Shown: positions 14,366-41,631, numbered from the stretch's first letter. The stretch: 48,338 nucleotides of DNA from Candidatus Woesearchaeota archaeon (GCA_047639395.1 JBLINR010000001.1:1-48338), one strand, 5' to 3'. Numbers and translations: made by a program. Notes: generated from the sequence alone by a model not told the origin.

Positions 14366-14773
14366 ATGTTTGAAGTAGGAAGACTATGTTTAAAGATCGC
14401 AGGACGCGATTCAAATAAATTTTGTGTAATTGTTGAGGAACTCGAAGATAGATATGTTCTTGTTGATGGGCAAACACGAAGAAAGAAAGTTAACATCGCA
14501 CATATCGAACCTACGCAAACGGTTTTAGATATTAAAGCAAAAGCATCTCACGAAGACATTGTTGCAATTCTTGCAAAAGAAGACATTGTTGTTGAAAAAC
14601 GTGGCGCTGTTAAAGTTGCAAAAGCTAGATTAGTAAAGCAAAAAGCTTCAAAAGTTAAACCTGAAGACAAAAAGCCTGCTAAACCTGCAAAAAAAGCTGA
14701 ACCTAAAAAGGTAGAAGCTACAAAAGTTGAAGCTCCGGCAAAACCTGCTGAAGCGAAAGCTGATAAAAAATAA
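14366..14773 (+). CDS. rpl14e: Ribosomal protein L14e with a Lys/Ala/Pro-rich C-terminal extension
   Basis: MFEVGRLCLKIAGRDSNKFCVIVEELEDRYVLVDG...RRKKVNIAHIEPT matches L14e. Tail: KPEDKKPAKPAKKAEPKKVEATKVEAPAKPAEAKADKK. Confidence 0.85.
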   Translation: MFEVGRLCLKIAGRDSNKFCVIVEELEDRYVLVDGQTRRKKVNIAHIEPTQTVLDIKAKASHEDIVAILAKEDIVVEKRGAVKVAKARLVKQKASKVKPEDKKPAKPAKKAEPKKVEATKVEAPAKPAEAKADKK

Positions 14774-14836: not shown

Positions 14837-14993
14837 GTATACTGTGCCTTGAAGTAACATCAGGAAAATGGCTGATTACTTGTTGATCATAGGGATCCAC
14901 AAGTCCGTCGAAGTTCTTCGAACTTCAAGGTATGCAAGTCGTTTGACGTTAGTACTGCGATCAACGGAGCAGTATGTCTTCGCACAGTAATAC
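14837..14993 (+). ncRNA. Unclassified structured RNA, copy A (157 nt, carries a 56-nt insertion relative to copy B)
   Basis: Closing helix GTATACTGTGC / GCACAGTA(A)TAC. Hairpins ATCAG-GAAAATGG-CTGAT, CAAG-TCG-TTTG and TACTGC-GATCAACGGA-GCAGTA. Homologous to the reverse complement of 17742..17845, with compensatory changes. Confidence 0.45.
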
Positions 14994-15026
14994 GTTCTAG
15001 TTCTTAAGAATAAGTCCATAAGCCCA

Positions 15027-15039
15027 ATATATTTAAAAA
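15027..15039 (+). promoter_or_regulatory. TATA element upstream of the SRP RNA
   Basis: ATATATTTAAAAA ends 23 nt upstream of the first base of the SRP RNA closing helix (15062). Confidence 0.5.
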
Positions 15040-15061
15040 GCCATTCGTATTTCTATTTATT

Positions 15062-15330
15062 GCAGACTAGGTCCGGGGGTTAGTCCCCCCCGATAACCGC
15101 AAGCGGGCGATATGGCGGTACCGAAATCCTTTGGTGTTTGTATGTGCATTGTGTAAGTCCTTATGGATGCTGTTAACACTTTGTCCTAATTGATCGATAA
15201 CGTGTCGAACCGAGTCAGGTGGGGAACCAAGCAGCTCTAAGATTGTTTGTTGGTGTTTTTAGGGTTGCAAAGCCGAGGCCTTGTGAGGGTAACTTTACAA
15301 TGTGTGTGCGGGCTACGAAGGGCCGTCTGC
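15062..15330 (+). ncRNA. Signal recognition particle RNA (7S/SRP RNA)
   Basis: Helix-8 core GTCAGG-TGG-GGAA-CCA-AGCAGC (15214..15236) matches the universal GUCAGG-UCC-GGAA-GGA-AGCAGC motif, with the 3-bp apical stem covaried and the GGAA tetraloop kept. 5'/3' closing helix GCAGAC (15062..15067) / GTCTGC (15325..15330). GC-rich, followed by T7. Confidence 0.8.
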
Positions 15331-15337
15331 TTTTTTT
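15331..15337 (+). terminator. Oligo-T terminator of the SRP RNA
   Basis: TTTTTTT lies directly after the closing helix. Confidence 0.55.
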
Positions 15338-15349
15338 ATTTCTTTAGAA

Positions 15350-15893
15350 TTAATTTGTATTTGTTTTTAACCACGCGTTATCTGTTCCTAACAACTGTTG
15401 AATCCGCTTTTTTGTCCGTGACAATTCGAAGTCTGCATTCAACCATCTGTCTTGAAGTCCTCTTTGTAATGCGAGAAGATTCCGATCTACTAAATTTGTA
15501 AGGTTTCTTTCTCTGTAATCAGGATACACTTGTGCAACATACGCATTATATTTAATAACAAACAATGGTACGCTCTGTAAAACAGGAGCCAGTCTTGCAA
15601 CAGCATGTGTGAATAATAAATCAAAAGGATGCACACCTAATTCTTTTTTTGCATCTTTAATTCTTTGATGAGTGCCATCGCTAGGTGCTTGAACATCCGC
15701 AATAGTAAATGATTCTGATCCAAGAGGGTAGTATGTTAAACATGCAACTTTTTCCTCTTTCGAGTTAATGAGAACAAGTGCTTCATTTGATGATGTTTGA
15801 TGATTAAATGTATGTTGCCCAAAACCAAAAGAACTTAATTGTGAGCTATGAATTATTTTTTACTCTCCAACAGGCTGAATAAATCTCATACAT
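15350..15893 (-). pseudogene. Hypothetical protein gene interrupted by a +1 frameshift in an A6 run
   Basis: ATG 15893 opens MYEIYSACWRVKNNS-stop. The long frame (170 sense codons, 15350..15859) has no ATG/GTG/TTG until codon 76. The two frames join as ...CWRVKIIHSSQLSSFGFGQ... if one A of the A6 run (T-run 15856..15861 on the + strand) is removed. Confidence 0.5.
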
Positions 15894-16071
15894 CGATCTA
15901 TTCTTTTTTCTATAGTGGGAGCAGTTTTTGCACTAGCATATGCAAGTGGGCCTGTACAGTGTGTACGATACTTTGAAGCGTAATCAACTTTGTCCATTCA
16001 AAAAGAGGAGTTCGAACTGTAACTTAAACCTTTCGAGAACCATTATAAATGAATATGCTAAGAAAATACAC

Positions 16072-16593
16072 ATGCGTCACAAAAAACATCTCTTAGATAA
16101 GATGAAAGAAAAAGGCTGGGATTCTGATGAACTGTCGTATATGAACGCGGTTTTAGACCATAGTAAGAAATCAAAAAAACATAGAGTGCTTGACGCATTT
16201 ATACCCTGGTTTGTTTTTTCAGTTATGTTTTTATGTAATGTTGCAATAACATTAGTTTTTGTTCCATTATTTCTTGTGTTAACAAATTGGATTCTTTTTG
16301 TTATGTTAGCTTGTTTAGGATTCATATTCGGGCTTTTATTCAAAGTAATTCTTGATGACTTCCGAGCAAATCTTAACGCACATCATGAATATTTGATACT
16401 TATTATTATTCCGTTCATGTCACTTATCACAGCATACATTGTGCTAAATGCAACATTATTATACATTCCTACTTTGTTAGTTGAATTACGACATCCGCTA
16501 GGCATGGGATTTGTGTATGCGTTATTTTTCACTGCACCTGCACTTGCACAAGTGCTTCACAAATATAGAATTCGCCAGTATAGGGCGTACTAA
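16072..16593 (+). CDS. Membrane protein (4 predicted TM helices), unknown function
   Basis: Chosen start is ATG 16072 (MRHKKHLLDK...), which lies 22 nt after TATA-like CATTATAAAT (16041..16050). The track's longer N-terminus has no promoter support. Confidence 0.5.
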   Translation: MRHKKHLLDKMKEKGWDSDELSYMNAVLDHSKKSKKHRVLDAFIPWFVFSVMFLCNVAITLVFVPLFLVLTNWILFVMLACLGFIFGLLFKVILDDFRANLNAHHEYLILIIIPFMSLITAYIVLNATLLYIPTLLVELRHPLGMGFVYALFFTAPALAQVLHKYRIRQYRAY

Positions 16594-16596
16594 ATC

Positions 16597-16605
16597 TTTA
16601 TAAAA
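16597..16605 (+). promoter_or_regulatory. BRE/TATA promoter of tRNA-His
   Basis: TCTTTATAAAAG, with the TATA ending 30 nt upstream of the tRNA 5' end. Confidence 0.55.
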
Positions 16606-16634
16606 GCCGTCGCTTGCCCTTTCTCTAGTATTAT

Positions 16635-16707
16635 GTCAGATATAGTGTAGTGGCTAGCATAGGGGTCTGTGGAACCCCAGGTCTGGGTTCGATTCCCAGT
16701 ATTTGAC
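16635..16707 (+). tRNA. tRNA-His (anticodon GTG) with encoded G-1
   Basis: Acceptor TCAGATA/TATTTGA. Extra 5' G (16635) opposite discriminator C73 (16707). Anticodon arm GGGGT-CTGTGGA-ACCCC. T arm CTGGG-TTCGATT-CCCAG. Confidence 0.9.
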
Positions 16708-16715
16708 CTCTTTTT

Positions 16716-16970
16716 CTAATAAATAGTGTCATGATGATCTATATCGAGAAAGTATATACTATTCTTATGAATTTCAAAAAGAACAACAAAAGATGATTGA
16801 ATATGAACTCGTCTAATTCCCTGCATTGTACCACGCAACGGTTTAAATCGAGACGGGTTATGCATTATTTGTTCAACTTTACGATCAAGTGCGTATTTGA
16901 ATGTCGGGTTTTTATTACCAATCTTTATTAGTTTTTTTACAAATAGTTTTGAAACTTTTTTCTGATACAC
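16716..16970 (-). CDS. RelE/ParE-family toxin
   Basis: C-terminal RRVHIQSSFVVLFEIHKNSIYFLDIDHHDTIY fits the RelE pattern. The GTG start overlaps the antitoxin stop. Paralog of 47685..47969. Confidence 0.7.
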   Translation of the reverse strand: MYQKKVSKLFVKKLIKIGNKNPTFKYALDRKVEQIMHNPSRFKPLRGTMQGIRRVHIQSSFVVLFEIHKNSIYFLDIDHHDTIY

Positions 16971-17185
16971 TAAAAGTTATCAGCAAATGATCCTTTAATT
17001 GTTTTAAAGGGACCTTTCCGAATATTTTCCAATTTTTTCGCATATTCTTCGGAAATCTCAGGTTCTTCAATCATTGTTTTCATAAAAAATTCAACCTGCT
17101 TGCTCATACTTATCCCGTTTTCCTTACAGTGAGTAGAAAATTTAGTATATGTTTGTTGATCGATATTAAATGATTTAATCGCCAC
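16970..17185 (-). CDS. Ribbon-helix-helix-type antitoxin
   Basis: 71 aa. N-terminal beta-strand/helix pattern KSFNIDQQTYTKFSTHCKENGISMSKQVEFFM. Sits upstream of, and overlaps, the RelE gene. GTG start. Confidence 0.6.
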   Translation of the reverse strand: MAIKSFNIDQQTYTKFSTHCKENGISMSKQVEFFMKTMIEEPEISEEYAKKLENIRKGPFKTIKGSFADNF

Positions 17186-17197
17186 ATTATATAATGT
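17184..17197. promoter_or_regulatory. Palindromic candidate operator of the TA operon
   Basis: Perfect 14-nt palindrome ACATTATATAATGT abutting or overlapping the antitoxin start codon. Confidence 0.4.
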
Positions 17198-17270
17198 TAT
17201 TTAACTTTATATAAAAGTTACTCTTTTCTTTCTGAAACGTATATAAATAGTAAGTGGGTATTATAGAGTT

Positions 17271-17690
17271 ATGAAAACATCAACACTCATTATTATCGTA
17301 GTTGTCGCATTAGTAGTTCTTATACTTCCAGTGTTGCTTTTTATGATAGGGAGCCTAGCATATTTTGGAGCATTGGATCAAACAGATCTTCTTCCTGAGA
17401 GATGTGTTGCAGGAGCAACATTTTCGTGCGTAGATAAAGCCACATATGAATCCACTTCTATGGTACAATTAGAAAACAGCGCTCGAACACCCGTAACCGT
17501 CACAAATGTTTCAGGCACTAATTGTGGCGCATCTATTGAAGGATTACCAAGAACAATGGAAAGTGGTGAGAAATTTAGAATCAGTTTGGATTGTGGCGGG
17601 TTAGTTGAAGATACACTAGAACTCATATATACTCAAACCGGGGGGATTCAAAGATCCGCACCAGTATTAGTATATCTTAAACCAAATTAG
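17271..17690 (+). CDS. Membrane-anchored or secreted small protein, unknown function
   Basis: 139 aa. N-terminal hydrophobic helix (LIIIVVVALVVLILPVLLFMIGSLAYF), then a Cys-containing soluble domain. Confidence 0.45.
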   Translation: MKTSTLIIIVVVALVVLILPVLLFMIGSLAYFGALDQTDLLPERCVAGATFSCVDKATYESTSMVQLENSARTPVTVTNVSGTNCGASIEGLPRTMESGEKFRISLDCGGLVEDTLELIYTQTGGIQRSAPVLVYLKPN

Positions 17691-17741
17691 TTTTCTTTTT
17701 TAGAGAGAACTAATGAAAAAGGTTCTAAATTTTTAATTTTT

Positions 17742-17845
17742 TGTATACTGCGCGTAGAGTTACTGCTCCGTTGATCGCAGGTTTTACGTCAAGTGGCTTG
17801 CACAATCAGCTACTTTTCTGACATTACTACAAGGCGCAGTATACA
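17742..17845 (-). ncRNA. Unclassified structured RNA, copy B (104 nt)
   Basis: Perfect 12-bp closing helix TGTATACTGCGC / GCGCAGTATACA. Its reverse complement aligns with copy A, including the identical 20-mer CTGCGATCAACGGAGCAGTA (17761..17780 here, 14955..14974 in copy A). G:U pairs favour minus-strand transcription. Confidence 0.45.
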
Positions 17846-17894: not shown

Positions 17895-17921
17895 GGCCAG
17901 CTCTCCCTGTTAATACAACCG

Positions 17922-17992
17922 CATAATGTCGAGGCTTACGAAGGTAAACTTGGATAATATGAAATCGCGGACAGTACTACCGTGACATTATG
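17922..17992 (+). other. Hairpin element in the rps13 leader (candidate regulatory or small RNA)
   Basis: 9-bp helix CATAATGTC (17922..17930) / GACATTATG (17984..17992) enclosing 53 nt. It starts ~30 nt after the TATA. Confidence 0.3.
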
Positions 17993-18523: not shown

Positions 18524-19288
18524 ATGGGAGATCCAAGAAAACCAAAAAAAATGTACGATACTCCACGACACCCGTGGCAAAAAGCTCGTATTGACGAAGA
18601 AAAGACTATCACTTATGAATTTGGCTTAAAAAATAAAAAAGAAATCCAAAGACATACAACTTTCATCAAAACACTTATTACTCACTTTAAGCGATTGTCT
18701 TATCAAGAAACTGCTCAGGCAGAAATTGAAAAAGATCAATTACAAGCAAAAGTTGTCGCATTAGGATTAATCAAAGCAGATGATCCACTTTCAGCAATTT
18801 TAGACTTAAAAGTACAAGACATTCTTGCTCGAAGATTACAAACAGTTATTGTTAAGAGAAAATTGGCGCGAAGTACAAAACAAGCACGACAATTTATCAC
18901 ACACAAACATATTGTAGTTAACAATCAAATTATAGATTCACCAAGTTTCTTGGTACCAAAAGCATCAGAAAGTGCAATTTCATTTGTTGTAAAATCTCCT
19001 TTATTCCAAGAAGATCATCCAGAACGACATTTGGAACAAAAAGTTGCTGAATTAAAACCAGCAGATGCACCAGCTAAGGAACCAGTTAAAGCTGAAGTTA
19101 AAGCAGCTCCAGTAGTTGAAGAAAAAGTTGTAGAAGCTGTTGAAATTAAAGCAGACGCTGCTGAAGTAGAAGCTGAAGTTAAAAAAGTTGAAGCTAAACC
19201 TGTAGTAGAAGCGGCTAAACTTGAAGAAGTTGAAGCTAAACCTGTAGCAGAACCAGCTAAACCTGTTGTTGAGGAACCGAAAAAATGA
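18524..19288 (+). CDS. rps4: Ribosomal protein S4 with an ~80-aa Ala/Glu/Lys/Val/Pro-rich C-terminal extension
   Basis: [26 protein letters not shown]... plus S4 RNA-binding domain ([33 protein letters not shown]). Tail runs from ~residue 170. Confidence 0.9.
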
Positions 19289-41237: not shown

Positions 41238-41631
41238 TTTTTCACCTAGAATTTTTTTACAATCTAATTTCCTCTCGTTTGCTTTATATAATTTATGATA
41301 ATCCAGAATATACAATACACAACATTTTGTGTCACTGGGGGGTGCGGAACACAACATCTTGTGGTTTTTGGAAAAACTCACTTTTCTTGTTTTTTGCGAT
41401 ATTTGCTAAAACAATGTAATCAGTTTAGAATATTTTTGTCTAATCTACTATGTTTATTTGGTGCTTCATAGTTAATAAGGACATTTAGAATATATGTTAT
41501 AAAAATTACACATACGTATGCCTTGAAGTTCGATTAGAAAATTTGCCGATTGTTTGTAGGCGAATTTTTGTTTAGTTCCCACCGGGAAGCTGGGAAAAAA
41601 TCTTCGCATACGTGAGAGATATTTACCTCAT

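Follow-up and report, generated by a model that had tools for sequence, protein, structure and literature searches.

A multicopy family of predicted structured RNAs of about 100 nucleotides in one clade of Woesearchaeota

Among the closest described counterparts of the element reported here are the C/D box small RNA (sRNA) genes of Nanoarchaeum equitans, 27 in number, which show the same heterogeneity of transcription contexts and for which mobility has been proposed (PMC3491384). We analysed a stretch of 48,338 nucleotides from Candidatus Woesearchaeota archaeon (GCA_047639395.1 JBLINR010000001.1:1-48338, hereafter the window), which holds four copies, named A, B, C and D, of an abundant and well-supported structured RNA family that is new to Rfam 15 and to the searchable literature. 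As read from the sequence, this is an uncatalogued, lineage-restricted, multicopy RNA of about 100 nt, belonging to one clade of Woesearchaeota (DPANN).

In common with the N. equitans C/D sRNA genes, the family is multicopy and is found, about as densely, between and beside the housekeeping genes of a tiny DPANN genome; a promoter and terminator of their own seem to accompany some of its members and others directly adjoin mRNAs, and signs of duplication or mobility as well as G·A motifs are common to both. Unlike C/D sRNAs, it has neither the C (RUGAUGA) and D (CUGA) boxes nor guides, its variable parts are paired stems, and it folds as a three-way junction of about 100 nt without Rfam similarity. 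The long terminal helix, the conserved bulge and the junction with hairpins, all within about 100 nt, recall instead the S domain of signal recognition particle (SRP) RNA and Y RNA, as do the conserved loops, the non-canonical steps and a conservation that lies in loops and not in stems. In this case the differences are the lack of sequence or covariance-model (CM) similarity to Archaea_SRP and the many paralogues per genome; in addition, no partner of the Ro or SRP type was identified.

A preliminary description of this DNA had presented A and B as the two copies of an unclassified structured RNA, inverted around a segment with the SRP RNA, tRNA-His and a toxin–antitoxin pair. Reading the sequence at 14837-14993 (plus strand) and 17742-17845 (minus strand) located both copies where they had been placed, while CM and repeat searches gave four copies in the window instead of two.

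The alignments described below show that each member fits a modelled three-way junction, formed by a closing helix (P1), a CUU bulge, a 4-bp helix (H) and the hairpins P2 and P3. Specifically, P1 measures 9-12 bp, has a new sequence in nearly every copy and carries an outer helix extension in some. The CUU bulge (3 nt) is invariant and is followed by the 4-bp helix. P2 is a hairpin of 10-12 bp, whose base often carries a tandem G·A/A·G and whose loop, (Y)GAUU-NN-UGCA(R), is almost invariant, and P3 is a short hairpin in which GA...GA is usual. The conserved unpaired residues are GCCUUG at the transition between P1, bulge and H, UCAG before P2 and CG after P2. All together, about 25 nt are near-invariant and lie mostly in the junction, the bulge and the loop; the stems covary freely. 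The fold proposed earlier, a closing helix plus three hairpins, becomes a closing helix plus two hairpins, to which the insertion of copy A adds two more. The features of the four copies are listed here.

14837-14993, plus strand: copy A, 157 nt (sequence, CM matches, fold)
14837-14847 with 14982-14993, plus strand: P1 of copy A, A14990 bulged
14848-14850, plus strand: CUU bulge of copy A
14851-14854 with 14978-14981, plus strand: 4-bp helix H of copy A
14855-14860, plus strand: J1/2 of copy A
14861/14863-14873 with 14937-14948, plus strand: P2 of copy A, including the tandem G·A at 14864-65 / 14945-46
14874-14877 (GAUU) and 14933-14936 (UGCA), plus strand: P2 loop of copy A
14878-14932, plus strand: optional two-hairpin expansion of copy A at the apex of the P2 loop, missing in B, C and D
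14955-14958 with 14969-14972, plus strand: P3 of copy A, loop GAUCAACGGA
17844-17743, minus strand: copy B, 102 nt (sequence, alignment, CM matches, nearest-neighbour analysis)
17844-17834 with 17753-17743, minus strand: P1 of copy B
17833-17831, minus strand: CUU bulge of copy B
17830-17827 with 17757-17754, minus strand: helix H of copy B, GUAG/CUAC
17780-17761, minus strand: 20-mer with P3 of copy B
41510-41617, plus strand: copy C (repeat search family D8, sequence, CM)
41513-41521 with 41606-41614, plus strand: P1 of copy C
41522-41524, plus strand: CUU bulge of copy C
41525-41528 with 41602-41605, plus strand: helix H of copy C, GAAG/CUUC
within 41510-41617, plus strand: P2 of copy C, AAAUUUGCC/GGCGAAUUU, loop GAUUGUUUGUA
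5178-5080, minus strand: copy D (CM only), between the Hjc gene and a divergent open reading frame (ORF)
5177-5167 with 5091-5081, minus strand: P1 of copy D
5166-5164, minus strand: CUU bulge of copy D
5163-5160 with 5095-5092, minus strand: helix H of copy D, GGUG/CACC
within 5178-5080, minus strand: P2 of copy D, GAGAGGG/CCCUCUC, loop UGAUUCAUGCAG

When copy A (plus strand) was aligned with the reverse complement of B, the column identity over the flanked stretch was 75%, and alignment and exact search reproduced the common blocks already described, namely GTATACTG(T/C)GCCTTG, GCAAG..TTGACG and an identical 20-mer. This 20-mer, CTGCGATCAACGGAGCAGTA, occurs exactly twice in the window, at 14955-14974 (plus strand) and 17761-17780 (minus strand); no third occurrence was found there at ≤3 mismatches, and 0 are expected in shuffles. 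According to the repeat search, A and B form the longest inverted repeat of the window (57 nt, 81% complementary, arms 2756 nt apart), and their homology ends where the RNA ends. Nearest-neighbour analysis showed that the two copies are 77% identical over model columns, each being the nearest relative of the other. Their folds are more stable than those of shuffles (z of -3.9 for A and -3.4 for B). The compensatory change in the closing helix, ..UGUGC/GCACA.. in A and ..UGCGC/GCGCA.. in B, is real, and both this helix and the hairpin of the 20-mer (P3) are supported by homologues. The insertion in A is likewise real, spans approximately 14878-14932 and gives two hairpins on folding; helix 2 of this copy is AAAUGGC/GUCGUUU, with the loop CUGAUU...UGCAAG. 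Two covariance models were used, R1, seeded with B, C and A minus its insertion, and R2, built from 20 sequences with D among them. Copy A scores 61.6 bits with R1 and 75.4 bits with R2, and copy B 112.1 and 93.6 bits, respectively.

Copy C was first traced by a repeat link between the 5' part of A and 41519-41557. Its closing helix is unlike that of A and B and its P3 differs from the other copies (UCCCA..UGGGA), while the core GCCUUGAAGU...GAUUGU... is kept; it scores 97.7 bits with R1, which has C in its seed, and 64.7 bits with R2, and is the most diverged member of the window by nearest-neighbour analysis. Copy D was found by R1 without being in the seed (32.7 bits, E=3e-5) and reaches 83.5 bits with R2, whose seed includes it. 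Its closing helix is again new (GAACUCAUGC/GCAUGAGUUC), and it is nearer to copies of other genomes (67%) than to A or B. Helix H is compensated across the copies: A and C have GAAG/CUUC, B has GUAG/CUAC and D has GGUG/CACC. The copies are all intergenic, with housekeeping neighbours that include the genes for Hjc, TFE-alpha, L34e/L14e, S13/S4/S11, ribonucleotide reductase and phosphoglucose isomerase.

The fold was assayed on a MAFFT alignment of 20 members that was fitted to no structure, and the tested pairs were those of P1 (10 bp), H (4 bp), P2 (C28-G63, G30-C62, the 2-bp G·A step and 8 bp) and P3 (4 bp). Pairing was observed in 91.1% of the cells, compared to 65.2% in shuffles; 21 of the 30 pairs show both-sided changes, and the covariation score (0.685, against 0.164) was reached by none of 500 shuffles. 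Sliding the 3' partners by 1-3 columns reduced pairing to 33-50%. P2 is paired in 99% of the cells despite the deep divergence of copies from the same genome, and double changes affect 8-9 of the 10 pairs of P1. RNAalifold independently recovers P1, H, P2 and part of P3, and an alignment of 81 sequences fitted to the model gave the same picture. In a mutual-information scan, the assigned pairs ranked at the top and no convincing extra tertiary pair emerged. Sequence identity, in turn, is 0.60 in loops and junctions and falls to 0.52 in stems; the P2 loop reads GAUUCAUGCA in 63 of the 81 sequences, a count inflated by the metagenome pattern, which demanded that sequence. A two-hairpin expansion of 57-65 nt at the apex of the P2 loop is found in 6 of the 81 members, copy A included, and one member has a similar expansion within P3. 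In conclusion, these data show that selection acts both on the pairing of the stems and on the sequence of loops and junction.

The very strong covariation in 81 distinct homologues also bears out the earlier proposal of selection at the RNA level, with A transcribed from the plus and B from the minus strand. That proposal was built on G:U pairs in two helices that the homologues do not support. The first, the CTGATT hairpin (AUCAG/CUGAU), pairs in 79% of the cells without any double change, has its fourth pair broken in 16 of 20 members and competes with the strongly covarying P2. The second, CAAG/YTTG, is compatible with the sequences, shows no double change and clashes with the covarying pairs 39-53 and 40-52. 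The strand assignment itself holds on the covarying stems, in which G·U cells (68) outnumber A·C cells (39) and a further 99 cells are G·A/A·G, which would be pyrimidine mismatches on the opposite strand; the stated strand is therefore favoured. We conclude that the structure is one of RNA, single-stranded DNA being less likely. Variable stems around a conserved loop, as in attC sites and rolling-circle origins, and a placement independent of orientation would also suit a site of protein binding or recombination that adopts its fold in single-stranded DNA, of the kind of attC, repetitive extragenic palindromic (REP) sequences or a rolling-circle origin. However, RNA is the more typical setting for a complex three-way junction whose G·A and G·U content is strand-specific, integrase and HUH genes were not found nearby, and the neighbours are ribosomal-protein, ribonucleotide reductase and phosphoglucose isomerase genes and not cassette arrays; we hold such a DNA-level element to be highly improbable.

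In some subfamilies (L035 7320-7460, L043 4240-4380 and the flanks of L038, L055 and L068) an outer helix of 7-13 bp extends P1 past an asymmetric internal loop, for example GUAAAGUCAAGUU/AACUUGACUUUAC, so that the terminal rod reaches about 25-28 bp. In many members, P1 opens with AAGU and closes with ACUU.

Outside the window, scanning one genome per GTDB species with the fixed-spacing pattern common to the four copies gave 63 loci. About half of these lie in metagenome-assembled genomes (MAGs) of Woesearchaeota, with 10, 7 and 4 in three single genomes; the Woesearchaeota matches have a closing helix and the bacterial ones are without it. R2 added copies at distances of 1-3 kb from the seeded ones, both in direct and in inverted orientation, together with a diverged copy in the closest relative reached via L14e, and a metagenome scan with the P2 core pattern contributed 57 members. 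The CM search of related MAGs, which had been suggested as a check in the preliminary description, thereby arrived at 89 matches (81 distinct) of 44-115 bits in Woesearchaeota MAG and metagenome loci. As a control, 306 kb of unrelated loci matching the seed pattern by chance gave a best score of 19.6 bits. Among 2.9 million viral contigs the P2 core pattern had zero matches and the seed pattern a single one, which was unconfirmed.

A genome contig scan with S13 for syntenic relatives found nothing, and the relatives reached via L14e (L003-L008) have little of the locus in common and a single diverged copy. When orthologous sites were compared across species, the loci at hand matched up only within the same populations. 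Since D is nearer to copies of other genomes and C is more diverged still, the data indicate old paralogy with retention, and the paralogues are shown to be older than the species at hand.

Two groups of members deserve separate mention. Contigs of a MAG labelled Methanosarcinales, CAZGJY01, carry good members at L029 278-381 and L051 6725-6828 (82-101 bits; L148 is identical to L051), which may be Woesearchaeota contigs placed in the wrong bin or may reflect transfer between a DPANN symbiont and what is possibly its methanogen host. An AT-rich metagenome subfamily (L098, L132, L140, L077, L109, L078 and L146) keeps P1, P2 and the P2 loop and is without the CUU bulge and H, GCCUUG-H being replaced by GCUACGAACU; its P3 also differs (GCGCG-CCAGGUAGGA-CGCG), and in L140 and L146 two such copies stand head-to-head within about 100 nt.

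With respect to known RNA classes, Rfam 15 finds in the window the SRP RNA (15060-15332) and two tRNAs. Run at E≤10 on copies A, B and C and on the prototypical member L035, it gave no relevant match, and A and B, both with zero matches, are unclassified as previously stated. At the gathering threshold, 18 loci gave two tRNAs only, and literature searches by sequence and topic returned no counterpart. tRNA-His and tRNA-Gln are the only tRNAs that ARAGORN and Rfam report for the window, and A, B, C and L035 have no tRNA match (E≤10); moreover, both hairpins lie inside the 4-bp helix, in contrast to a D arm (a circularly permuted tRNA was judged by sequence only). 5S rRNA came into consideration through a loop-E-like AGU/GAA, which only copy C has, and gave no match at E≤10; in A and B the order of the strands is incorrect, and 5S is incompatible with ten or more diverged copies in each genome. 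The genuine archaeal SRP RNA (RF01857) is the one at 15060-15332, with 103.3 bits, and leaves the family members unmatched; an SRP-Alu-like origin, suggested by the resemblance of GCCU(U)GUAGU, is without model support.

The sRNA classes fare no better. In C/D box sRNAs, a 5'-proximal C box (RUGAUGA) and a 3'-proximal D box (CUGA) form a kink-turn (K-turn), and C'/D' boxes lie between them along with guides of 10-12 nt. The 81-member consensus has no C/D boxes in register, CUGA being present only in the minority with a P2 loop that starts with U. A, B and L035 had no match of the small nucleolar RNA type in Rfam at E≤10, and the match of copy C to snoR13 lies on the opposite strand, at 15.2 bits against a gathering threshold of 60 (E=9.9). 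In H/ACA sRNAs the ACA box lies 14-16 nt 3' of the pseudouridylation pocket, and a single hairpin carries a K-turn or kink-loop (K-loop) in the upper stem. In the family, ACA follows P1 in some copies only, about 19-20 nt from the junction, and the 'pocket' would contain two hairpins. In the bulge-helix-bulge motif of flanked or circular RNAs, which is itself set between helices, a 4-bp helix separates two 3-nt bulges on opposite strands, and each bulge follows its 4-bp strand on the 3' side. The family shows the mirror image of this, its CUU bulge preceding the 4-bp helix (5') on the sense strand, and a second 3-nt bulge with ≥2 flanking pairs is present in only 16 of the 81 members. RNAs bound by L7Ae at a K-turn or K-loop have strictly conserved tandem sheared G·A pairs beside a 3-nt bulge or loop. 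Features of this kind are seen as stem-GA...GA-stem in P3 of most members and as the P2 step, and a strict K-loop is weakened by the Watson-Crick pairs that stand in their place in some lineages. A guide function finds no support either, as the complement of the P2 loop is not enriched in the window and the variable single strands measure only 4-6 nt. A small ORF from the loop AUG is at odds with the absence of that AUG in B and C and with stems that covary as RNA.

Pairings that involve the P2 loop were also considered. A pseudoknot AUC:GAU between J1/2 and the P2 loop, which corresponds to the CTGATT hairpin of the preliminary description, shows no covariation and is sterically impossible (11-bp P2, 1-nt linker). 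Pairing of CUUG with CAGG in the P2 loop is compatible in 97% of the cells, changes on one side only and clashes with the covarying pairs 39-53 and 40-52.

None of the known self-cleaving ribozymes and riboswitches of Rfam 15 matched A, B, C or L035 at E≤10. By analogy, a junction-centred fold with some 25 near-invariant nucleotides in junction, bulge and loop, covarying stems, optional insertions at helix tips and many copies per genome in varied contexts and orientations resembles hammerhead and twister, and the lack of a match to known ribozyme families would make it a new class. Such a small catalytic RNA, most plausibly a self-cleaving ribozyme with its active site in the three-way junction, appears very unlikely to us: the resemblance is circumstantial, the known consensus cores are missing, neither a cleavage-site signature nor tertiary covariation was detected, and no association with mobile or viral genes was found.

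The orientation of 65 copies relative to their two called neighbours is near random, with 24 on the same strand as both, 15 opposite to both, 13 convergent and 13 divergent, and adjacent copies in other genomes are direct as often as inverted. In such a multicopy family the idea of A and B as a specific bracket of the SRP RNA, tRNA-His and toxin segment is not supported. The inverted arrangement looks incidental and is probably not meaningful. An inversion of the 2.7-kb block through recombination between A and B is conceivable in principle, nothing suggests its selection or occurrence, and a second assembly of the same organism (L001) has the same orientation.

The placement of the copies bears on whether they serve neighbouring transcripts, as a 3'-end stabiliser, a processing 'punctuation' or an insulator. 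For many of them, a gene on the same strand ends some tens of nucleotides away or less (copy A starts 63 nt after L14e), all three copies of L142 lie between co-directional genes on the same strand, and a general promoter signal was not found. However, the 15 copies antisense to both neighbours include B and C, and in that orientation the strand-specific G·U/G·A fold could not work in cis. In addition, the UBA10207 lineage has promoter-like and terminator-like signals of its own, and we rate a cis-acting element as quite unlikely. Specifically, in the UBA10207-type duplicated unit an A/T-rich, TATA-like box precedes P1 by about 26 nt, and about 10 nt downstream come a covarying GC hairpin and then a T-run. 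These signals, together with the antisense position of B and C, support independent genes.

In the UBA10207-like population (L017, L025, L028, L060, L087 and L106) the repeated unit that contains the RNA gene measures about 230 bp, with a conserved 18-nt stretch, TACCTCGTGCTTCAGCTC, before P1 and with GAUUCAUU, which echoes the P2 loop motif, after the GC hairpin.

As A and B are mutual nearest relatives and D and C are more distant, the pair looks like a local duplication. An alternative reading of the family is a selfish, non-autonomous mobile element, similar to short interspersed nuclear elements (SINEs), miniature inverted-repeat transposable elements (MITEs) or REP-derived hairpin elements (REPINs), in which the folded RNA or single-stranded DNA would be the substrate of its own spread, the fold being kept because only folded lineages propagate and not by service to the cell. 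The family is indeed multicopy, strictly intergenic, lineage-restricted and hairpin-bearing, lies in either orientation relative to its neighbours and forms local clusters (2-3 copies per 8-14 kb in other genomes). The homology of the near-identical pair L015/L045 is bounded by the P1 ends, lineage- or genome-specific expansions occur, such as that of the JAGWAF copies with one P1 and outer helix in common, and mobility has been proposed for the C/D sRNA genes of Nanoarchaeum (PMC3491384). On the other hand, REP/REPIN and MITE sequences differ from the family in several respects. P1 differs almost copy by copy with double changes, so that there are no common terminal inverted repeats, and no target-site duplications were seen in the flank listing. 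The fold is asymmetric, with three helices and conserved loops. The preliminary description had held that many copies with target-site duplications and without compensatory substitutions would speak for a MITE; many copies were found, together with abundant compensatory changes and without common terminal repeats. Neither transposase nor integrase nor reverse transcriptase genes stand beside the copies, whose neighbours are housekeeping genes, and the 2.9 million viral contigs lack a core-pattern match. Copies from the same genome are deeply diverged with near-perfect pairing, which implies retention in a streamlined genome, and the promoter and terminator inside some duplicated units point to duplication of DNA and not to retroposition. 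A selfish element is possible but doubtful.

Taken together, we favour, with a probability of roughly 45%, the reading that the members are independently transcribed, protein-binding small RNA genes that spread by duplication. A and B would then be two recently duplicated genes of a multicopy family of RNAs of about 100 nt, each gene being transcribed alone or, in places, with a neighbour and then trimmed. The RNA would act in trans as a sequence-specific, protein-binding scaffold in a ribonucleoprotein (RNP); since its invariant parts are unpaired and its variable parts helical, a scaffold is likelier than a base-pairing guide. The P2 apical loop, the CUU bulge and the G·A steps are the putative protein contacts. 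Growth of the family would proceed through duplication of a small gene at the DNA level, the A/B pair being one instance of it without any bracketing role.

Several observations weigh against this reading. We infer the transcription, the ends and the strand of the RNAs from sequence, and the RNP depends on a putative protein partner. Among all members there is neither a TATA box at a fixed distance nor an enrichment of downstream oligo-T, and many copies begin 1-30 nt past an upstream ORF on the same strand, so that many may be co-transcribed or act in cis. Ten or more seemingly equivalent copies per streamlined genome of about 1 Mb are hard to explain by dosage, and such an excess fits a selfish or cis-acting element better. 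With regard to the fold, the pair counts of the 81-sequence alignment lean toward the structure to which it was fitted. The G·A/A·G step of P2 is present in 15 of the 20 aligned members and Watson-Crick in the other 5, A-U/A-U replacing it in a quarter to half of the members, and GA...GA of P3 becomes G·U/A-U in one lineage (the L057 group); owing to these replacements, the G·A tandems are probably not strict K-turn or K-loop sites.

DPANN genomes are among the smallest and most streamlined, and this clade nonetheless keeps ten or more copies per genome, four of them within 48 kb in this case. That the family constitutes a new functional class of archaeal RNA, whether a self-cleaving or otherwise catalytic three-way-junction ribozyme or a DPANN-specific RNP subunit whose small genes proliferate like mobile elements in genomes that are extremely streamlined in other respects, seems unlikely. 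Should it prove to be a ribozyme or part of an RNP, archaeal biology would gain a new RNA class; should it prove selfish, it would represent a novel kind of mobile, structured small gene, present in genomes regarded as almost devoid of repeats. Whichever applies, the covariance model provides a marker and an annotation for Woesearchaeota MAGs.

Other features of the window were recorded. The SRP RNA at 15060-15332 lies just above threshold (103.3 against a gathering cutoff of 96.5 bits) and is a reduced form, measuring about 273 nt against the 317 positions of the model, with a model segment of 38 nt collapsed to 2 nt. Between tRNA-His and copy B, at 16716-17185 on the minus strand, a putative antitoxin of 71 amino acids precedes a toxin of the ParE/RelE family (84 amino acids), which is Pfam ParE_toxin in the identical contig L001. 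The leader of the S13-S4-S11 operon (17900-17990, plus strand) has smaller hairpins enclosed by a long-range inverted repeat, CAUAAUGUC ... GACAUUAUG, and in a relative (L003, 5150-5260) a hairpin-rich leader occupies the corresponding place; by its sequence, this region may be an autoregulatory ribosomal-protein leader. Finally, L14e (14687-14769) and S4 (19148-19272) end in long, low-complexity C-terminal tails rich in Lys, Ala, Glu, Pro and Val, which derive from related repeats with a 21-nt period (repeat family D1) and are unusual for these proteins.

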